Below, in pieces: positions 12,916 to 54,231 of a DNA stretch of 64,000 nucleotides (position 1 is the first letter of the stretch; every line of letters begins with the position of its first letter). The notes under the pieces were generated by a model. It worked only from the letters and a program-made list of their open reading frames with translations, had not been told where the DNA came from and ran no database searches. The position numbers and the translations under genes are program-made. This DNA comes from Minisyncoccota bacterium (GTDB taxonomy: Bacteria; Patescibacteriota; Minisyncoccia; Phycocordibacterales; XYD1-FULL-46-19): NCBI GenBank assembly GCA_041665625.1, contig JBAYIK010000001.1:196341-260340 (forward strand), written 5' to 3'.

Positions 12916-13419
12916 TTATTTATAGATGGCGATGAGTTGGCGGAGGATGAGTGATTGAGGGGTGATCTCGTGGCCAGAGAAATCAAACCAAACTCGCAAG
13001 AAATCTTCTCGTTTAATTTTTCTTTCTCCGCCAAGCTCCGGATCTTGAAGATAGATATAATCGTCATCCAGACCCGACACCACTGAGTAATGACCGTCGG
13101 GCACCTCCGAATCATCATAATCTTGTCGCCCCCGAGTGAACCAATTCACAATGACCGGTGTCCCCTTCTCGAGCCACTCCTCAATCTCCGCAAAACTGCT
13201 CTCAGTCTTAATCTCCGCCCTGAAGCCAAGAGACTCTGCCGCCCGGACGATATCTTTGTCGCTAACGCCAAGATCAGAGACCAGACCCGTCAGCTCGGCC
13301 AATTCTTTCTCCGTCTTCTCAACTCCATAATAATCCAAGACAATCTTAAGCGAAGCCGGCCCGCACATCCCCGCATGCAAGGTTTCTTGAAAAGGTTTAA
13401 TGGCTAGATGTTTGTTCAT
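12916..13419 (-). CDS. C39-like (Peptidase_C39_2) cysteine-peptidase domain protein
   Basis: 'HAGMCGPASLKIVLDYYG' (Cys), '...DGHYSVVSGLDD' (His), 167 aa. GGGG SD supplied by the upstream repeat element. Confidence 0.6.
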   Translation of the reverse strand: MNKHLAIKPFQETLHAGMCGPASLKIVLDYYGVEKTEKELAELTGLVSDLGVSDKDIVRAAESLGFRAEIKTESSFAEIEEWLEKGTPVIVNWFTRGRQDYDDSEVPDGHYSVVSGLDDDYIYLQDPELGGERKIKREDFLRVWFDFSGHEITPQSLILRQLIAIYK

Positions 13420-13472
13420 TTTTTTCCCCGAAGTCGTATCTCGCGTAGCCAGATCCGACTTCTTAGCTTAAC
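13420..13472. repeat. short copy of the intergenic element 'CCCCGAAGTCGTA..(loop)..ATCCGACTTCTTAGCTTAA'
   Basis: 7-bp inverted repeat GAAGTCG/CGACTTC. The minus-strand orientation gives 'GGGGAAAAAAATG' providing SD and start for 12916..13419. Related copies at 15121 and 16423. Confidence 0.6.
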
Positions 13473-13864
13473 ATTTTATAATATTCGGGATAACTTTTCT
13501 TAATAAAATTCTTCCAACAAGCTGTCTCATTACCATGACCTAAATCTTTTTTCCCATAGACAAGAAGGACTCTTACAACCCCCTTGTCTTTATGAAGAGC
13601 GACAATGCACCGATTGCCAGAACCGTGTCTTGACTCTTGAGTTCCGGAAATTTTAAATTCTGTCTTACAAATAACGATATCTGCATCTTTATCTGTTATC
13701 GGCTCAGCAATACTCTTCAAAAATAGGGCGTCAATCTTCTCAAATTCCTCAGCGATAGTCCCAAGTGTAAAGTCCCAAGCTCCCTTATACTTCTTAGCAA
13801 AAGATTTTATAAAGTGCCTCTCCGCAAAAGGCTCGAAGATAACTCTATACTTAGTAAACCTCAT
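13463..13864 (-). CDS. putative toxin partner of the Panacea-domain antitoxin (small protein, unknown family)
   Basis: About 134 aa from 'MRFTKYRVIFEPF...', overlapping the 3' end of the upstream HTH-Panacea gene by about 14 nt. The track ORF runs to 13912. Confidence 0.45.
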   Translation of the reverse strand: MRFTKYRVIFEPFAERHFIKSFAKKYKGAWDFTLGTIAEEFEKIDALFLKSIAEPITDKDADIVICKTEFKISGTQESRHGSGNRCIVALHKDKGVVRVLLVYGKKDLGHGNETACWKNFIKKSYPEYYKMLS

Positions 13865-14534
13865 GAGGATCTTCCTGTGTAATAAGAGCGTAAGAGACAA
13901 TTTCTTCATCATCAGCCATTAAATATGGCAGTTGGTTATGAGTAAAATTAACAATTTCGGCTGTTTTTTTATCTTTCCACTTTCTATGAATTTCTTTCAT
14001 TAAGTTTTCTTCCTCAGGCAAAATAGATTCTAACTTTTGTTTTTTATTACTATCTGACTCACTAATTATAATCATTTCTTTGCCATCAGCGTTCTTGCGG
14101 TCAACGATTATCTTTCCTTCTTCCTCAAGCTCATCAAGGGCTCGAAAATAAGAATCTGGAACTGGCCCATATTTAATTTTACGATACTGCATACCACTCA
14201 TGCTATTCAAATGACTATAAAACCAGGCAAAATCAGAGAGATAGACAAGTTTGGCCAATTTAGTCTTTTTAACACTTTTACCCAATCGGAGAAAAGACAG
14301 GATCATCTGCTTATATTTCTCGTAATTAGGAGACTCACCCTTCTCCATCTCTTCGAAAGGTATATTTAAAATGCCTGAGAGTTTTTCAAATTCACTCATA
14401 GACAGCTCTCTCTTCCCCTGTTCAATGGCAATATAAGAAGGACGAGAAAGACCCAATTTAGAGGCTAAGTCTAATTGGGAGAGACCTTTCTTAAGTCGAG
14501 AGGCTTTAATCAGCTTCGCGTACTTAGTAATCAT
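13851..14534 (-). CDS. HTH_XRE plus Panacea (DUF4065, SocA-like) domain protein, antitoxin-like
   Basis: 'LSQLDLASKLGLSRPSYIAIEQGKR' is Cro/C1 HTH. 'KLAKLVYLSDFAWFYSHLNSMSGMQYRKIKYGPVPD' is the Panacea signature. ATG at 14534 has a TATACT box 12 nt upstream (track ORF to 14696). Confidence 0.65.
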   Translation of the reverse strand: MITKYAKLIKASRLKKGLSQLDLASKLGLSRPSYIAIEQGKRELSMSEFEKLSGILNIPFEEMEKGESPNYEKYKQMILSFLRLGKSVKKTKLAKLVYLSDFAWFYSHLNSMSGMQYRKIKYGPVPDSYFRALDELEEEGKIIVDRKNADGKEMIIISESDSNKKQKLESILPEEENLMKEIHRKWKDKKTAEIVNFTHNQLPYLMADDEEIVSYALITQEDPHEVY

Positions 14535-14781
14535 ATACCAATAAGTATACATAAACGTGTAAATAATGCAAACATAGGTGTTGATAAGTTTGACATAAAA
14601 AATAAACGGAGTAAAATTTATAGAGGAGAGAGCCTTTTTGCGGAAATCCTCTCCCCTAAAACATAAATATCTTTTTTGCCCTTTGGGGTATTTCAACTAA
14701 ACTAATAAGTAAAAACTTTAACACTTTTATTTTACCAAATTTAGATTAATTAATAAACAAGGGTAACTAACCAAACATTCA

Positions 14782-14982
14782 ATGCCTTATTACACTCGTA
14801 ATACCGGCAAATCGTGGACACCAAAAGATGTGACGCAGTTAAAACAGCTCGTTCGTCAAAATACACCAACACGAGTCGCCGGATTCAAACTTGGCAGAAC
14901 TGAAGATGCGGTCAGAGCAGAGGCCAGTAAACTCTCCCTCAGCTTAAAGCCAACAAACCAGTCGCCGCACAATAGAAAGTAG
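14782..14982 (+). CDS. small putative DNA-binding (HTH-like) protein
   Basis: 66 aa. '...WTPKDVTQLKQLVRQNTPTRVAGFKLGRTEDAVRAEASKL' resembles sigma-70 region-4/terminase-small-subunit-like HTH. Its own terminator follows. Confidence 0.45.
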   Translation: MPYYTRNTGKSWTPKDVTQLKQLVRQNTPTRVAGFKLGRTEDAVRAEASKLSLSLKPTNQSPHNRK

Positions 14983-14996
14983 ACCTTAAATTTGAA

Positions 14997-15037
14997 AAGA
15001 AAGAACGAGACCGCAACTCGTTCTTTCTATTTTTTTA
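14997..15037 (+). terminator. intrinsic terminator
   Basis: AAGAACGAG-ACCGCAA-CTCGTTCTT then TCTATTTTTTTAT. Confidence 0.7.
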
Positions 15038-15068
15038 TCTATAATTTATGAGACTAACCTCAGTCTCC

Positions 15069-15102
15069 TCATCCCAACAAACTCCAGTTTGTAAAGATGT
15101 TT
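15069..15102. repeat. copy 3 of the 34-bp element
   Basis: TCATCCCAACAAACTCCAGTTTGTAAAGATGTTT. Confidence 0.7.
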
Positions 15103-15120
15103 AGGCGTTTTTCTTTCTTC

Positions 15121-15140
15121 TCCCCTTTTCCCCGAAGTGA
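15121..15140. repeat. partial copy of the 'CCCCTTTTCCCCGAAGT' element
   Basis: Matches the 5' part of the elements at 13420 and 16423. Confidence 0.45.
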
Positions 15141-15202
15141 GTTTTAGTTGTTATGACACATTTTACCCTTGAGACGAGGCCTGACCTCGTTTCTCTAATA
15201 AA

Positions 15203-16342
15203 TTAATCTGCTATATCAATATCAGGGATATCTCCATAATACTGGAGTGCCCGAAGTATTGCCGGAAAAAGGGTGGAATCAGATACCGGATGCATGACAA
15301 AAGGAGGGAGAGCTTGCAAGTTCTGTCCAGAAGAAGCCTTCTCGTCAGCCTGGTAATGAAAAGAGAAATTAGTGAAATACAACGCATTCCAAGCAGAAGG
15401 ATTTTCTTTTGTAACATTTTTGGAATGAGAGGCATTTTTAAAGATATTTTTCACCCACGGTATCTTTTTAAAATCCCCTGATTCTTCATGTGGTACATTT
15501 ATATCAACAAAGACAAGAAAAGGCATCTTGCCACACTCTGTTTTTTTAAAGGCCTGGTTAAGGAGACGTTGGATACCTCCGCCATTAATTTTGGACCCAT
15601 TAACATCTCCTGGGGTATGAAGGATTCCAGGCCTGTGCCTACTTTTAGCTTCGACGGCGATTTCTACTCCTGACTCTTGATGTGTGGCAATAAATTCACA
15701 ATGTGGCTCTGAATGGTCTTCTTCATCTAGCCATCTTATATTAAAACCTAATCGCGCAATGATTGCAGCAATCATAATTTCGTATCTTGCCCCTTGATAT
15801 TCTAACGGCGTTTTAAGACGACCAAGAAGAAAGTCAGGTATTCTAGAAACATGTCTTAGTGTTGAAATATCAAAAGCAAGAGAAATTAAAGATTTAGTCC
15901 ACCCGTTTGGAGGAGCCTCTAATACGCCAGGGGTTTTATAATTAGGTTTAGCCAAGAGTTCTTTTTTCCATTCATCAAATTTCAAAAAACATTTCACAAT
16001 AAAATGTTGATCTTCCCACAACAGAGACTGTTGCTCATTAATCCATTCGAAACTCAAAGTATCTTTAAGAATAAATTGAATAAAATCATGAAAGGTCTCA
16101 TCAGAATTTTCGCTAAGATATACTTGATTACCAATTGCCCAGACTTTTTTCCCTTTGTGAATTACCGGGTTAACATAATTAATATAAATCCCTTTTTGCT
16201 TAAGAAGATTTTCTTTTTCTCGTATTTTTTTAAAATGTAAGAGTACTTCCATGGGAACAGGTGAGTTATCTTCATCCATATGACATTTTTTATATTTCTT
16301 ACCACTTCCACAGTGGCAAAGCTGGTTTCTTCCTAATTTCAT
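15203..16342 (-). CDS. SEC-C metal-binding motif protein with possible PD-(D/E)xK nuclease-like core
   Basis: N-terminal 'CHCGSGKKYKKCH' (SEC-C). The central 'EPHCEFIATHQESGVEIAVEAKSRH' resembles an E..ExK restriction-endonuclease-like signature. No other recognised domain. Confidence 0.55.
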   Translation of the reverse strand: MKLGRNQLCHCGSGKKYKKCHMDEDNSPVPMEVLLHFKKIREKENLLKQKGIYINYVNPVIHKGKKVWAIGNQVYLSENSDETFHDFIQFILKDTLSFEWINEQQSLLWEDQHFIVKCFLKFDEWKKELLAKPNYKTPGVLEAPPNGWTKSLISLAFDISTLRHVSRIPDFLLGRLKTPLEYQGARYEIMIAAIIARLGFNIRWLDEEDHSEPHCEFIATHQESGVEIAVEAKSRHRPGILHTPGDVNGSKINGGGIQRLLNQAFKKTECGKMPFLVFVDINVPHEESGDFKKIPWVKNIFKNASHSKNVTKENPSAWNALYFTNFSFHYQADEKASSGQNLQALPPFVMHPVSDSTLFPAILRALQYYGDIPDIDIAD

Positions 16343-16422
16343 AATAATTTATTTTTTAATCATGTCCTCACAACACACCACGTTGTTCAACAGAATTGAA
16401 TCAATGGGAACGACCCCATTAA

Positions 16423-16541
16423 TCCCCTTTTCCCCGAAGTCGTACTTCAAGCGCTTGCCCTGCGCCGTGCCGGCCATAGCTTTAGCGAAGACTAGAAGCT
16501 TCGGTGAAGTAGGGAGCTCGAAATCCGACTTCTTAGCTTAA
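16423..16541. repeat. long copy of the intergenic element (same ends as 13420..13472, with an extra internal segment of about 75 nt)
   Basis: 'CCCCTTTTCCCCGAAGTCGTA' ... 'ATCCGACTTCTTAGCTTAA'. Lies between the methyltransferase and SEC-C genes. Confidence 0.6.
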
Positions 16542-17812
16542 GAAACAAAATCCAAGAGAGACTTTCCAAGCCTCTCAATAACTCCAACGACCAGAGCATT
16601 ACCCATAATAAAGGCTCTTTTTGTGTCTGGGGTAACTTTTCCATTTAACATAAATTTTGTGTGGTCAGAAGGAAACATGTTTAACTTCTCCAACTCAAGT
16701 GGGGTAAGCCGGCGAAGCCTGCCAGATTTAGTCTTAATGACGTGTTTAAAGCGCGAGGGAGAACTTCCACCTTCCCCCGTCACAATTGTTCTGGATGGCT
16801 TATCAAGAGAATCAGGAAAAGCCATTGGGCCTTCTGAGTAATCATATTCAAACCCATCTTTTGATTTCCGCCCCTCTTTCTTTCCACCTTTTAAATATTC
16901 CCATCTTTTTTGATCAGCCTTTTTTATAAAAAATTCTTCTGGAATTTTTGCTTCGTCGTGAATAATAATATTTTTAAGTAAAATAGACTTACCATTATAA
17001 TTAGGCACAGATTTTACTGAGTAGACTTTTCTATCAATCATAACTCCGGAAACATCAAAAGGGCTTTTAGTTGGTTTATTTGAAGAAAAATTCTTAGATA
17101 TTTCCTCCAGACTTCCCTCAATTCTAAATTCGCCCAATTTACCTTCACCTTTTTTCACAGGGAAAGCTTTAGCAATTACTCCATCTTTGTAAATCCAATT
17201 TTCAAGATTTTTTTCTTTTTTAATAGCATTAAAAATCTTACTGCCTTTTTTATACCCCATAATAAAAACTCTTCTCCTTCTTTGCGGCATCCCGTAATCG
17301 GCCGCATTTACAACCCTCCATTCAACTGCATAACCAAGATAAGAAAGAGAGGTCAGCATAACAGCAAAATCTCGACCTCTCTGTCCTGAAGGGGATTTTA
17401 ATAATCTATCGACATTCTCTAACATTAAAAAGTTCGGGGAATTTTTTCCTTTTTTATTTAAGATATTATAAATAGACCACCATAAAACACCTTTCTTACC
17501 ATAGATACCCTTAGCCTGGTTCGCTGTTCTCGCAACAGAATAATCCTGACAAGGAAATCCCCCGACAAGTAAATCATGGTCAGGTATTTCTTTAAATTTA
17601 TTTTCAACGACATCTTGGATATCTTCACAAGAATGTCCCTCTTCTCCAAATATGTTTATATAAATCTGAGAAGCATGTTGTGTAGCTGCCCCTGGTTCCC
17701 ATTGGCTATTCCATACTGTCTCATATTTTAAGTCTTTTTTACTTGCAGCATCAAGGCCAAGGCGGAAGCCCCCAACACCGGCAAAAAGCTCAAGGACTCT
17801 TATTTTCTTCAT
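16538..17812 (-). CDS. DNA (cytosine-5)-methyltransferase
   Basis: Motif I 'LFAGVGGFRLGL', motif IV 'GGFPCQDYS', motif VI 'ENVDRLL'. Adjacent to a Sau3AI-like endonuclease. Confidence 0.85.
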   Translation of the reverse strand: MKKIRVLELFAGVGGFRLGLDAASKKDLKYETVWNSQWEPGAATQHASQIYINIFGEEGHSCEDIQDVVENKFKEIPDHDLLVGGFPCQDYSVARTANQAKGIYGKKGVLWWSIYNILNKKGKNSPNFLMLENVDRLLKSPSGQRGRDFAVMLTSLSYLGYAVEWRVVNAADYGMPQRRRRVFIMGYKKGSKIFNAIKKEKNLENWIYKDGVIAKAFPVKKGEGKLGEFRIEGSLEEISKNFSSNKPTKSPFDVSGVMIDRKVYSVKSVPNYNGKSILLKNIIIHDEAKIPEEFFIKKADQKRWEYLKGGKKEGRKSKDGFEYDYSEGPMAFPDSLDKPSRTIVTGEGGSSPSRFKHVIKTKSGRLRRLTPLELEKLNMFPSDHTKFMLNGKVTPDTKRAFIMGNALVVGVIERLGKSLLDFVS

Positions 17813-17843
17813 AAAGAGATTCTAACAGATAGCGTCAAAAAGA

Positions 17844-19247
17844 TCAATATTGATCTTTTTGGTTTTCTATGGCCTGCTGTATATACTTAGCATTTAACCA
17901 AAAACACCGTTTCATTTCCTGTGTTTTTTGGGGAGTTTCAATGGTATCTGTACTGTCTTTCCCGTGAGGTCGAACGTGGGCAACAGGACTTTCCTTCATT
18001 TTTGGCAAATCTTCGTACCGACCATCCTTAATACAATCAACTGTTTTTTGCCAGACCTTTTCTACCTCACCAATGTCTTTCATCGGAAAATTCCAGAAGA
18101 AGGTTTTCTTCAATATTATATTTTTACTCCTCTTTTCCTTTTGAAAAACGACAAATAAAAACTTCTTTGTCTCCAGCTGTAAATGAAACTCGGCCATAGT
18201 TTCGTCTTCTTCGTCAAACCACAAATCATTTACTAAACTTTTGTAGTCGAATGCAGGAAAAGAAATAGATTCTCTTAGTGTCCCGGTGTGTTCAAGAGTA
18301 ATGACTCTAAGTGTAATGTTGGCCTTCTCTAATTCCTCTACATTATTTGATTCAACGTCTAATATCCTGTTAACAATTAATCTTTTGTAACTCTTTGATT
18401 TTTTGCCGAGACTTGAATTTAACTTAGCTAGTATCTCCGTGTCTGTTTTGCCAATAAATTGGCTAAATTTTTCTTTAACAACATCTTCAATTGTTTCAAT
18501 TCTCCGGTGTTTCTTAAAGATTGAGTCAGTATTTGTTTTTTCTCCAAGCAGTTTAGTCTGAATAAGGTAATTGATATATTGCTGTTTAAAAGAAAAGGCT
18601 CTCGGTTTCGCAGCGATGCGCCCCATCGGCTGATCCCTAACAACTCGGCTATTAGCCGCTTTAGTGCAAGCTCCCAGATAATAAGTATCTCCCTCAGAGA
18701 GCAAGTGGGCTTCCCCTCGTTTAATCTTATTTACTATATATTCCCAGTCTTTTTTAATCTGAAAAACATCTTCGTCGGAAATATCCTCAAGGAGCTTCAG
18801 CAAATGGACAAACTTGAACTCATAATCAAGGATACTTTGACTTTCAATCCAAAGATAGAACATCAGTAGTAAAGTTTTATTCTTTTTTAGGAAAGAGCTT
18901 TGTTCCCAGGTCTCACCGACAACGGTATCATAATTAATCATTGAAAAGACGAGACGCTCCTTAGAGGAGAGCTTACCGGTGTTGTGTTTTTTTAGAGGAG
19001 TAGTCTTCAGCTCAACACTCGCAACAGTAAAATCTGGTTCACTTATATTACCTGGATTGATTTCGAAAAAATATTTTTCCATTAAATCACCCAAAAAACC
19101 TTTGCGTTTCAATCCGTACCCACCAATTTGTTCTTCAATTGCCCCGAGACTTCCAGAAGGGATGACTTGGCGCAAAGACTTTTGCAAAATAGTCTTTGCT
19201 TTCTCTAAAACCTGTTCTTTTGTGTTATATGTTTGAGACATGTTCAA
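17844..19247 (-). CDS. Sau3AI/MutH-family type II restriction endonuclease (GATC-type predicted)
   Basis: 'EPDFTVASVELKTTPLKKHNTGKLSSKERLVFSMINYD', 'EAHLLSEGDTYYLGACTKAANSRVVRDQPMGRIAAKPRAFSFK' and C-terminal 'HVRPH...FWLN' parallel the MutH/Sau3AI catalytic and duplicated domains as I recall them. Confidence 0.7.
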   Translation of the reverse strand: MNMSQTYNTKEQVLEKAKTILQKSLRQVIPSGSLGAIEEQIGGYGLKRKGFLGDLMEKYFFEINPGNISEPDFTVASVELKTTPLKKHNTGKLSSKERLVFSMINYDTVVGETWEQSSFLKKNKTLLLMFYLWIESQSILDYEFKFVHLLKLLEDISDEDVFQIKKDWEYIVNKIKRGEAHLLSEGDTYYLGACTKAANSRVVRDQPMGRIAAKPRAFSFKQQYINYLIQTKLLGEKTNTDSIFKKHRRIETIEDVVKEKFSQFIGKTDTEILAKLNSSLGKKSKSYKRLIVNRILDVESNNVEELEKANITLRVITLEHTGTLRESISFPAFDYKSLVNDLWFDEEDETMAEFHLQLETKKFLFVVFQKEKRSKNIILKKTFFWNFPMKDIGEVEKVWQKTVDCIKDGRYEDLPKMKESPVAHVRPHGKDSTDTIETPQKTQEMKRCFWLNAKYIQQAIENQKDQY

Positions 19248-19900
19248 ATATTAGAAATAAAACTTGCCGACAAAGTTTTAGAAACCACAACATGATCAAC
19301 GACTTTAATGTCTAAGATTTTCCCCGCACTGATTAGCTTCTTAGTAACCTCGATGTCATCAGCGGAGGGTTCAAGGTCGCCAGAGGGATGATTATGAGAA
19401 ATTATAATTGAAGAGGCGTTATTTTTAATGGCTCCCTCAAAGACTTCTCGAGGATGAACAAGGCTTTCATTAAGAGTGCCAATTGAAATAATATCTCTTT
19501 GTATTTCTTGGTTACGGCTATCCAGGTAAAAAACAACAAAGTGCTCCTTTTTGCTTCCCCTTATGTCCTCCATCCTCTCCCAGACATCTTTTGGGGAAAG
19601 TAATATAGAGGATTTCTTGTCTTTCAACATCCTTTTGCCAAGCTCAAAACAGGCCATAATTTCACAAGCTTTTGCCGAACCTAGGCCATGGATAGTTTTT
19701 AATTCATCAATACTTATATCAACAAATTTTTCGTTTTCAAATTTCTGTAAGATTTTTTGAGCTAGTTTTAGCACATTCAAATCTTTTGTACCAGTACGAA
19801 GCAAAATCGCCAGCAATTCGACGTCAGATAATTTGCCCGGACCATACTTTTCCATCTTCTCTCTTGGTCTATCAACACGGGGTAAATCCTTAATTTTCAT
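19244..19900 (-). CDS. radC: RadC-like JAB/MPN domain protein
   Basis: 'HNHPSGDLEPSADDIEVTKKL' is the JAMM motif. HhH-like N-terminus. Confidence 0.8.
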   Translation of the reverse strand: MKIKDLPRVDRPREKMEKYGPGKLSDVELLAILLRTGTKDLNVLKLAQKILQKFENEKFVDISIDELKTIHGLGSAKACEIMACFELGKRMLKDKKSSILLSPKDVWERMEDIRGSKKEHFVVFYLDSRNQEIQRDIISIGTLNESLVHPREVFEGAIKNNASSIIISHNHPSGDLEPSADDIEVTKKLISAGKILDIKVVDHVVVSKTLSASFISNI

Positions 19901-19996
19901 AATTTATTTTCCTATTCTACCACATTTCTCGCCTTTTTACGATAAACCAAAACACCCCCGAAGGGAAGGGTGTTTTGAGTAAGTACCTAGAATTAT

Positions 19997-20293
19997 CTAG
20001 ATTACCTTCCAGAGAAATTTACGATAAGCGGGAGAGAGGTCCGCCCAAGATTTAAAGGCTTTATATTGAGCAATGGATTGTTGAGAATTTTTTGAATCAA
20101 TCGTCTCAATCTCAATAACGACTTCAGCATTCCCATTCCGTACGTAAACATCAGGAATATAGCCATTAATAACTGGCGGTTTATTGTTTCCGGGCAAATC
20201 CGAATAAACAACAGGCCAACCAGCACGAACATATTGAGAAGCAATATTTGCCACTTCAGTATCGTGGATAACTTGATTTTCTTTTGGTCTCAT
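19997..20293 (-). CDS. hypothetical small protein (weak PD-(D/E)xK-like 'IPDVYV...EVVIEIE')
   Basis: 98 aa with a flanking hairpin terminator at 19945-19975. Function unknown. Confidence 0.4.
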   Translation of the reverse strand: MRPKENQVIHDTEVANIASQYVRAGWPVVYSDLPGNNKPPVINGYIPDVYVRNGNAEVVIEIETIDSKNSQQSIAQYKAFKSWADLSPAYRKFLWKVI

Positions 20294-20334
20294 TAGGTTT
20301 ATAATTAGTTTGTTATTTAGGTTCTTCCGACCTT

Positions 20335-20380
20335 TAATAAAAACAGCGAGACCGAAGGGGCTCGCTGTTTTTATTTTATT
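20335..20380. terminator. bidirectional-shaped intrinsic terminator
   Basis: ACAGCGAG-ACCGAAGGGG-CTCGCTGT flanked by an A-run and TTTTTATTTT. Confidence 0.6.
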
Positions 20381-20581
20381 AAAATTTAGTTTTTGAACTT
20401 ATAGCGTGATCGAAAGCAATAGGGTGGGCTTTTTACGTAAAAAATAACGCTTAGAGTCACCTTCGATAATTCTTTGATAAATTGTAGAAGAACTTATGGA
20501 TCCATTATAAAAACAACGATAAATAGCCCCTTTTGGGGACAAAATGTTCATAAAAAGGGACTATCCCAACAAATATTGAAT

Positions 20582-52131: not shown

Positions 52132-54231
52132 TTATTTCACAGAAACGTCTCTTGTCAAAATTCCGTCTTTAAAGTTAATAGGCTCAGATTGGTAAACTTT
52201 AATGTAGGATCCGTCAGGAAGTTTCTCTTCGACCGTATAATAGTAGACACCAGGTCGGACTAAGAGGTAAAAACGTCCAAACTTATCGGCCACCACCTGT
52301 TTAATTTGTTGATTAAGATTAGGAATAAAGACCCGCAAAATAGCAAAAGATAGAGGTTCACCAGTACTTTCCCTAAACACTCTCAGTGGTTTATATTTAT
52401 CTCGCCAGAAAATATTGTAGATAATAATTCCAACATAGAGAAGAGTAATGATAATATTTGGAAGTGAGAAATCAAAGACAATAGCATAAATAGAAAGGAT
52501 GAAACCAAAACCAAAGAATAATTTATACAAACGATTCAACCAGAGCTTGCGTCGGTCGTAGAAACGGAAGAAATTAGTCTTTGTCTTCGCAAATTCATTC
52601 CAGTCGAAGTCAACTGAGTCCATCGGAATATTAAGATTGACAACGTTGTTACTAGTAACAACAATCGGGGAGCCAAAATATAAATTACGATAAAGCTCAT
52701 CCCACTCTCGTCCTTCTAATTTAGAGGAAGGGAATTTATAGTGAGTCTTATTCGCCTTAAAATAATAAGTACCATCTGGCAGGAAGAAACTATAGCGCCC
52801 ATCAATATCAGTAATGGCGCTAGCCATCTCTTTCATTTTACCATCAGGGCCCGTCACTTCAGCCGTAACATAAACCGGATCGAGAGGTTGTTTTGTCTCA
52901 GAGTCATAAACTGTTCCCCAGGGTTTGTCGTGACGGCGACGACCAAGGAAATAACTAAAGACACGGATCAGAAGATTCCAGAGATCAATTAACAAAGGAA
53001 GGAAGCCAATAAATAGCCCGGCAGTTGTTAGCCAAGGAAAAGCCGTGTTAGGTATCACCAAGCGACCCTTGATATGCTGCATCGTCTGATTCTCGTAATT
53101 GATGATATAAATATCAATCGGATACAAACCCCTCTTGAGTAAAGGACTAAGCATCGCCTCATAAGTTATCCCATCAGCAGAGCGATGCATCAAAAAAGAA
53201 TAACTTTTATTTTTATCATAAGGATCTGTCAGTGTTACCCCAATGGTCTTAAGGGAAGAGACAATTGAACTAAATTTTAATCGAACAGTTACAGGTTTGG
53301 CCCCTGCCAAGCGAACAATCCCCCTCCAGTCAAAAGTTTTTACACTTTCTGCTGGTTGAATAAAGGATAATTCCCATTTTACGTTTAAAGACGAGGCGGC
53401 AGGAGGAAGAAAAGAAAAAGGACCACCATCCTCACCATAGCGGCAGCTGTCGTCATTAAGTTCTGCTCGTGGATTATAGTTTAAAGCAGCCGGGTCAGTA
53501 CAACCAGAAATTTTCCCCGGTGGCCAAGGAACGACCTCATCAGCAAGACGCCCGTCAGAAAAAGAATTATCATTATTAAGAACGAAAGCCGTATAATAAT
53601 AATGTTGCCCCTCTTGGACATTGGAATCAAGAGTTCTCTCCCCTTTTCCTTCATAAATCTTTACTAAGCCAACTGGTGAATTAACCCAGCCACGGACAAT
53701 GACAATTGACTGGAATTTTGTTAGGGGAGGATTCTCCCAGGTAAGGAGTATGGCCTTCTGGACTTCATCATATTTTGCTTTAAAGTTGTTAAGTTGATAG
53801 TGACAAGTCCCATTATCAGCCGTTGCTATCGGATTATAATTAATAGCGACCTTGTCAGTACATCCAATTGGTTGAGGTGGATGACAATTATAAGTACAAG
53901 AGTGATCGTCTTGGGTTGCCAGTGGATTATAGTTACAAGCTCGGGGGTCAATACAGCCAGGAACAGGAGGAACAACCGCCGCTGGATCAATCTCCATATA
54001 ACGATAACCAGTACTAGCATTATTAAGTCCACCAAAACCCAAGCCCGAAGCAAGTTCTCCTAAGGTGTCACTAAGACCATAATTCCCCGAAGTCGAAAAG
54101 TCTGTCCCCCCAACATTCAAACTATCTTTTTCTAACCGATAATTGGGGCTAGCTGCAACATAGGCAGAAGCCGAGCTAACAAAACCAAAAAATAAGATGG
54201 AGAAAAAAAAGATAAAAAAAAATTTTTTCAT
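52132..54231 (-). CDS. large secreted hypothetical protein with three tandem Cys-pair repeats
   Basis: Signal peptide. Three repeats of the form 'GC[IT]D..A.NYNP.A...D.SC.Y'. C-terminal TM helices. Confidence 0.6.
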   Translation of the reverse strand: MKKFFFIFFFSILFFGFVSSASAYVAASPNYRLEKDSLNVGGTDFSTSGNYGLSDTLGELASGLGFGGLNNASTGYRYMEIDPAAVVPPVPGCIDPRACNYNPLATQDDHSCTYNCHPPQPIGCTDKVAINYNPIATADNGTCHYQLNNFKAKYDEVQKAILLTWENPPLTKFQSIVIVRGWVNSPVGLVKIYEGKGERTLDSNVQEGQHYYYTAFVLNNDNSFSDGRLADEVVPWPPGKISGCTDPAALNYNPRAELNDDSCRYGEDGGPFSFLPPAASSLNVKWELSFIQPAESVKTFDWRGIVRLAGAKPVTVRLKFSSIVSSLKTIGVTLTDPYDKNKSYSFLMHRSADGITYEAMLSPLLKRGLYPIDIYIINYENQTMQHIKGRLVIPNTAFPWLTTAGLFIGFLPLLIDLWNLLIRVFSYFLGRRRHDKPWGTVYDSETKQPLDPVYVTAEVTGPDGKMKEMASAITDIDGRYSFFLPDGTYYFKANKTHYKFPSSKLEGREWDELYRNLYFGSPIVVTSNNVVNLNIPMDSVDFDWNEFAKTKTNFFRFYDRRKLWLNRLYKLFFGFGFILSIYAIVFDFSLPNIIITLLYVGIIIYNIFWRDKYKPLRVFRESTGEPLSFAILRVFIPNLNQQIKQVVADKFGRFYLLVRPGVYYYTVEEKLPDGSYIKVYQSEPINFKDGILTRDVSVK

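Follow-up and report, generated by a model that had tools for sequence, protein, structure and literature searches.

The closest described relatives of the gene pair considered here are the PanAT toxin-antitoxin (TA) systems, in which the antitoxin, PanA, carries a Panacea (DUF4065) domain. Kurata et al. predicted 88 clusters of the partner toxin, PanT, in 2022 (PNAS; PMC8832971); their Dataset S1 gives HigB-2 as the best HHpred match (99.73%) of the representative of cluster T14, which includes two Saccharibacteria genomes with a helix-turn-helix (HTH) PanA, the antitoxin gene first, and an 11-nt overlap (PMC8832971). Complexes of PanA and PanT have been demonstrated experimentally for other pairs (PMC8832971); stand-alone Panacea can neutralize directly, and in some multidomain PanAs added domains do so (PMC8832971, PMC10440598). 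Alanine substitution of R51, R64, Y82, and K84 of HigB-2 cuts its activity 170- to 3000-fold, and the decrease for R64, Y82, and K84 is 350- to 3000-fold (PMC5416850). We analyzed a 64,000-nt stretch from a Minisyncoccota bacterium (GenBank assembly GCA_041665625.1, contig JBAYIK010000001.1, positions 196,341 to 260,340; here called the window), in which an antitoxin gene with HTH and Panacea domains, panA, overlaps a small gene, panT. Taken together, our results make it probable that the two genes form a type II PanAT operon whose HigB-2-like, mRNA-cleaving PanT is neutralized by an autoregulating PanA.

Both panA and panT are encoded on the minus strand. The panA gene (14534..13851, stop codon included, with its start ATG at 14534) encodes 227 amino acids (aa), with an N-terminal HTH of the Cro/C1 type and the Panacea domain, and panT (13864..13463, stop codon included) encodes 133 aa beginning with MRFTKYRV. 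The initial annotation had described an HTH-Panacea gene overlapping a small open reading frame (ORF) of roughly 134 aa by about 14 nt; sequence and Pfam matches confirm the arrangement, with an overlap of 14 nt (13851..13864), and the length is corrected to 133 aa. Public gene calls for the contig use upstream starts, which give a toxin of 148/149 aa (13463-13912) and a PanA of 233 or 281 aa (13851-14696). Because the toxin homologs are mostly 131 to 133 aa long, we prefer 13864 to the longer 148/149-aa call; homolog lengths and the conserved promoter described below show 13864 and 14534 to be the true starts of panT and panA. The overlap may couple translation of the two genes.

The association of the two genes across genomes strongly supports their reading as a TA pair. 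Our survey covered 80 loci, each from a different GTDB species representative; of these, 78 had room upstream of the toxin gene and 2 had the toxin at a contig edge. A PanA homolog is located immediately upstream from panT on the same strand in all 78 testable loci, with the HTH intact in 77, and six sampled relatives 29 to 39% identical to the window toxin are also encoded directly downstream of an HTH-Panacea gene; for a seventh distant relative, on an 849-nt contig, the upstream gene is cut. The pairing of PanT with Panacea is obligate, and the co-occurrence of small-ORF homologs with Panacea genes, which had been named initially as a check on the proposed PanA-PanT pair, is thereby borne out. 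The overlap measures 11 nt in 34 of 77 loci and 14 nt in 27 (61 of 77 together). Three close homologs, each directly behind a 227- to 230-aa HTH-Panacea gene with an overlap of 11 to 14 nt, are found in unrelated neighborhoods: the first near genes for a type I restriction-modification (R-M) specificity subunit, GmrSD, and Fic; the second near HsdM, AlbA_2, and a Cu-oxidase; and the third between rplL and mraZ. Relatives of the cassette adjoin type I R-M, GmrSD, Fic, AlbA_2/Schlafen, and reverse-transcriptase genes, and the flanking genes vary among loci, so that the unit comprises at most three genes and is part of no longer conserved operon, as in described PanAT systems.

To judge by its conservation, the small ORF is a real gene, far beyond a chance ORF. 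The database holds 871 PanT homologs; the best 120 of them, at 66 to 77% identity and almost all 131 to 133 aa long, are annotated as hypothetical proteins, and the hosts named among these 120 are Patescibacteria, Paceibacterota, or Parcubacteria metagenome-assembled genomes (MAGs). An exhaustive profile search (E <=1e-3) gathered the family into 207 clusters at 50% identity, nearly all of 125 to 146 aa and found mostly in Patescibacteria. A few homologous cassettes occur in MAGs labeled Verrucomicrobiota, Bacteroidia, Gammaproteobacteria, Pacearchaeota, or Nanoarchaeota, which reflects either real transfer or errors of binning or labeling. Scans of Pfam, PADLOC, NCBIfam, PHROGs, and PDB sequences returned nothing significant, either for the single PanT sequence or for the profile of its close homologs; the Pfam models of the RelE/ParE superfamily gave no above-threshold match to the window PanT, and no consistent Pfam family emerged across 98 family representatives. 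These 98 representatives are the basis of the conservation counts given below, and HigB-2 was reached only by their broader profile, not by that of the close homologs.

Although the small ORF had at first seemed impossible to place in a known toxin family, structure and profile comparisons agree on its position: PanT has the RelE/ParE fold, and among its characterized relatives HigB-2 is the closest by both measures. The AlphaFold2 model, built from a 33-sequence alignment (pLDDT 88, pTM 0.82), consists of a short strand, three helices, a three-stranded sheet (residues 63-69, 84-91, and 96-104), and two C-terminal helices (113-132), and thus shows the order typical of the BECR fold, in which an antiparallel beta-sheet comes after an N-terminal strand and helices. 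The best structural matches of this model are all RNases, and the nearest relatives by fold and profile are aRelE, YoeB, HigB, and HigB-2. When the profile of the 98 representatives was compared with the PDB, only chains of Vibrio cholerae HigB-2 matched (E ~0.01). A direct hhalign comparison of the family with HigB-2 gave a probability of 79.7% (E 1.5e-5), with a HigB-2 numbering that agrees with the PDB-profile alignment. The family motif '..SxKxSGNRxI...iLLVYsKnD' aligns with 'KGKRGGSRII...LLTIYGKNE' of HigB-2, which places K71, R85, Y103, and K105 of PanT opposite R51, R64, Y82, and K84 of HigB-2.

Within the family, K67 is present in 97 of the 98 representatives, R85 in 97, Y103 in 96, K105 in 97, and E113 in all 98. 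The proposed active-site codons span 13550..13666 on the minus strand (K67, 13664-13666; R85, 13610-13612; Y103, 13556-13558; K105, 13550-13552), and the codon of the invariant E113 (13526-13528) is just beyond them. The fourth catalytic position is uncertain, because K71 is not conserved in the wider family; K67, which lies on strand beta-2 on the same face as K71, may replace R51 of HigB-2. Since K67, K71, R85, Y103, K105, and E113 are all present, the window PanT looks active. G104, which is mostly H in close homologs, was considered as a sign of inactivation and rejected, as the position varies (S, H, G, C, and A) and HigB-2 itself has G. On these comparisons, PanT is most likely a HigB-2/RelE-like ribosome-dependent mRNA endonuclease, and we propose K67, R85, Y103, K105, and E113 as residues for mutation.

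The resemblance to the characterized toxins has clear limits. V. cholerae HigB-2 (PF06296, 'RelE') is a ribosome-dependent mRNase, whereas the similarity of the window PanT to it falls below Pfam thresholds; the position of R51 is variable in the PanT family, in which K67 and E113 are family-specific invariants instead. The higBA2 operon has its toxin gene first, in contrast to the antitoxin-first order in the window, and HigA2 neutralizes through a disordered N-terminal region, whereas the antitoxin in the window is an unrelated Panacea protein. Sequence and profile searches of the PDB detected no sequence similarity of PanT to archaeal or bacterial RelE, YoeB, or HigB; PanT is 30 to 45 residues longer than RelE, YoeB, and HigB, with two extra C-terminal helices, and it lacks a catalytic His-Glu or His-His pair like those of YoeB/YafQ.

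In PanA, Pfam identifies HTH_3 at residues 9-62 (4.6e-13) and SocA_Panacea at residues 93-202 (1.1e-11), the latter at 46.1 bits against a cutoff of 25.7, so that the antitoxin has the Panacea/DUF4065 domain by which PanAT systems are recognized; in domain-library scans, DarG models match the Panacea region more weakly. We detected 2178 PanA homologs, the closest of which are 85% identical and 224 to 230 aa long. The AlphaFold2 model (pLDDT 81.8) shows a five-helix HTH (residues 6-65; 14340..14519), the Panacea domain (71-206; 13917..14324), and a C-terminal tail (207-227; 13854..13916), all on the minus strand. The end of the protein is poorly predicted (mean pLDDT 58 to 75 across the last three 10-residue blocks, from residue 201); despite this low confidence, T219-Q220-E221-x-P223 in the tail is invariant in the homolog alignment, and the tail is a candidate toxin-binding segment. 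As a guess at the predicted interface, PanT would be held by the Panacea core, by the tail at residues 207-227, or by both. By structure comparison, the PanA model resembles the C-terminal DarG domain seen in the DarTG complex, but PanA lacks a macrodomain, and PanT bears no relation to the ADP-ribosyltransferase DarT.

Upstream from panA, 77 family sequences share the arrangement aTGTCaA..tTat.aACA-(4)-aTGTTTgacTTtTttACA-(about 8)-TATAcT-(6-9)-ATG. The -10-like hexamer ends 6 to 9 nt ahead of the ATG in 69 of the 77, and at 9 nt in the window, where the promoter-like element (14544..14572, minus strand) consists of the -35 hexamer TTTGCA (14572..14567), a 17-nt spacer, and the -10 hexamer TATACT (14549..14544). 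Because the -10 hexamer ends so close to the start codon, the panA mRNA is predicted to be leaderless or nearly so. At least one TGT-N11-ACA box is present in 68 of the 77 upstream sequences, and two or more in 43. The window has two such 17-bp boxes on the minus strand, box 1 (TGTCAAACTTATCAACA, 14595..14579) and box 2 (TGTTTGCATTATTTACA, 14574..14558), which are candidate operators for PanA autorepression; autorepression by the HTH domain would fit, because box 2 overlaps the -35 element. The 38-bp region that they occupy (14558-14595) is proposed for footprinting.

We therefore envisage, as a model, that panA would be transcribed first from a sigma-70-like promoter as a leaderless or near-leaderless mRNA and that translation of panT would begin at its start codon within the last 14 nt of panA. 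PanT would enter the ribosomal A site and cleave the mRNA under translation by means of K67, R85, Y103, and K105, and this cleavage would lead to growth arrest. PanA would neutralize PanT by binding it directly through the Panacea domain, the conserved flexible C-terminal tail, or both, and its HTH would repress the operon by binding both TGT-N11-ACA boxes, which lie over the -35 region. Several observations weigh against this model. The promoter in the window matches only 9 of 12 consensus positions in a consensus scan, which also found promoter-like sites not to be enriched in the region, and a Shine-Dalgarno (SD)-like motif precedes panT in only 27 of 77 loci. K71, the residue aligned with R51 of HigB-2, is K in 32, A in 21, R in 18, and S in 14 of the 98 representatives; the invariant E113-T114 has no assigned HigB-2 counterpart; and the sequence similarity to HigB-2 is weak, below every Pfam threshold, with a single representative of the 98 touching PF06296 (E 0.014). 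The rows for cluster T14 in Dataset S1, discussed below, are all marked 'notest' (PMC8832971).

Other activities of the same fold have to be weighed against a ribosome-dependent mRNase. The main alternative is that PanT is a ParE-like toxin that poisons DNA gyrase instead of cleaving mRNA. We consider this unlikely, since the best structural matches are all RNases, the sole sequence-profile match is HigB-2, and R85, Y103, and K105, the matches to the HigB-2 active site, are nearly invariant in the family; to our knowledge, ParE proteins do not have this constellation of residues. Nor does a C-terminal helix point away from an RNase, as HigB-2 too has one, alpha-3 (PMC5416850). Slightly less improbable, but still doubtful, is a RelE/BECR-fold RNase that needs no ribosome or has a different RNA substrate, for example tRNA or rRNA: the similarity to HigB-2 is remote, E113 and the family-specific conserved K24 and S78 are without an assigned counterpart in it, and cellular targets differ among toxins of the BECR fold at large (PMC11980606). 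However, aRelE, YoeB, HigB, and HigB-2 are all listed as ribosome-dependent mRNA-degrading toxins (PMC11980606, Table 1; PMC5416850), and the beta2-beta3 loop of PanT is long, as in HigB-2, whose loop was proposed to contact 16S rRNA (PMC5416850).

Two further explanations would change the role of the pair or its extent. Among PDB sequences, the PanA HTH is matched best by controller proteins of R-M systems (C.BclI, 4.9e-5; C.Esp1396I; C.AhdI), and a C5 methyltransferase and a MutH/Sau3AI-like nuclease are encoded as a pair about 2 kb from the cassette, so that PanA could be a controller-type regulator of adjacent R-M genes and the small protein a harmless cofactor, with no TA system at all. 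This is very unlikely, because the gene pair travels together into many contexts without R-M genes in the flanks examined (for example, next to rplL/MraZ or Fpg), the conserved TGT-N11-ACA boxes are at panA's own promoter, and the small protein retains an RNase-type active site. The least credible of the explanations, in our view, is a three-gene module in which a C39-like peptidase works with the pair, for instance by processing or degrading the antitoxin. The presence of such a gene right after the small ORF, noted in the initial annotation, is corroborated by Pfam (Peptidase_C39_2/C39, 5.4e-15; 13419..12916, minus strand); it starts 43 nt past the panT stop on the same strand, no U-tract terminator lies between them, and occasional accessory third genes, proteases included, were noted by Kurata et al. 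(PMC8832971). However, no C39 homolog was found within the flanks examined of 90 related loci, the genes downstream of the pair change from locus to locus, and the GC content steps sharply at the panT/C39 junction, from 0.476 (13000-13499) to 0.370 (13500-13999). The C39 peptidase is a chance neighbor outside the PanAT module.

The junction itself is marked by a hairpin directly past the panT stop (13429..13461, minus strand), which has no U-tract and a predicted RNA fold of -18.5 kcal/mol (z = -4.9 versus shuffles); here the module ends and a low-GC island has its edge. The 3' arm of the hairpin extends into the GGGG used as SD by the C39 gene. This SD had been attributed to a repeat element, which holds in part: the GGGG comes from a recurring short core, but the full 37-nt hairpin was found once in the window, with no second copy. 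A second copy of the 17-nt core TACGACTTCGGGGAAAA is found at 16432, with shorter forms at 15130 and 54085. These sites belong to a G-rich motif, (TA)CGACTTCGGGGAAAA(GGGGA), on the minus strand at 13426-13443, 15130-15147, 16432-16452, and 54085-54098; for comparison, the chance expectation for an 11-mer is about 0.03 in 64 kb. The copy at 13426 supplies the GGGG ahead of the C39 start codon, and three of the copies are intergenic, where one gene unit of the low-GC island meets the next. The motif may be left over from a repeat or may serve as a signal at cassette junctions.

Comparison with cluster T14 bears on the novelty of the toxin. Like the window pair, the T14 entries in Dataset S1 combine an HTH-Panacea antitoxin with the antitoxin-then-toxin order and an overlap (-8 to -17 nt, compared with 14 nt in the window), and the best remote-homology match of the toxin is HigB-2 in both. 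The T14 genome with taxid 2080845 is currently assigned to Candidatus Nanoperiomorbus periodonticus, and a Ca. Nanoperiomorbus sp. protein encoded behind an HTH-Panacea gene shares 39% identity with the window toxin (E 2e-27). The T14 taxa listed are Methanobacteria, Cryosericota, Saccharibacteria, and Flexibacter, from RefSeq-type genomes, whereas the window copy belongs to the larger Paceibacterota/Parcubacteria clade, which did not turn up in the part of Dataset S1 examined (PMC8832971). Matched by description and through the Nanoperiomorbus homolog, the window PanT family very probably corresponds to T14 or to a large branch of it from Paceibacterota. The earlier suggestion of a new PanT partner is thus probably incorrect, as a HigB-2-like toxin with an HTH-PanA, Saccharibacteria hosts, and an 11-nt overlap is already in the T14 entries of Dataset S1. 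Either way, a Panacea antitoxin with a RelE-fold toxin is a known kind of pairing, and with the cluster apparently catalogued before, the conceptual addition is small.

The TA pair is at the edge of a low-GC stretch (~13460-20500), in which GC is 0.34 to 0.40, compared with mostly 0.41 to 0.56 in the flanks. Besides the pair, this stretch encodes a 379-aa protein with an N-terminal SEC-C zinc motif (15203-16342, minus strand), a C5 DNA methyltransferase (16538-17812), a nuclease of the MutH/Sau3AI family (17844-19247), and RadC (19244-19900), and it looks like a horizontally acquired defense island with a Sau3AI-like type II R-M system. The C-terminal region of the SEC-C protein ('...VEIAVEAKSRH...') has what looks like a PD-(D/E)xK nuclease motif, and its PADLOC matches are weak, through the SEC-C motif only. 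Divergent from panA on the plus strand is a 66-aa ORF (MPYYTRNTGKSWTPKDVTQLKQLV..., 14782-14982) that has no Pfam match and is followed by a terminator-like hairpin with a 12-bp stem (14998-15028); a homolog of this ORF (E 1.2e-32) lies upstream of the pair on the opposite strand in one related locus (L090, 368-625) and not in others. In a Nanoperiomorbus locus with a related PanAT pair, a MazE/PemK toxin-antitoxin pair is about 2 kb away (L101, 4962-5411), so that TA modules are clustered there.

These settings suggest that PanAT is a mobile cassette of defense islands. Because the low-GC island carries a Sau3AI-like R-M system and relatives of the cassette adjoin R-M, GmrSD, Fic, and Schlafen/AlbA_2 genes, the cassette probably serves phage defense by abortive infection, stabilization of the island, or both. 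A bolder proposal, offered tentatively and thought doubtful as a whole, is that the cassette is the dominant, horizontally mobile TA/abortive-infection module of Patescibacteria: self-contained, and equipped with a conserved leaderless promoter and an operator of its own, it would encode proteins ~57 to 85% identical across many candidate lineages and would have been inserted repeatedly into the defense islands of ultra-small episymbionts, and, with its E113-T114 and C-terminal helices, PanT might represent a RelE-fold variant, catalytic or regulatory, that is absent from studied toxins. What our analysis adds to the catalogued pairing is a Patescibacteria-wide family, concrete active-site residues, and a conserved leaderless-type promoter with its operator region. 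The PanT family has no Pfam or NCBIfam model, and making one would improve the annotation of Patescibacteria genomes. For about 900 "hypothetical proteins" of candidate phyla, our results thereby provide a testable prediction, namely, that they may act as RelE/HigB-2-like mRNases held in check by a Panacea antitoxin.

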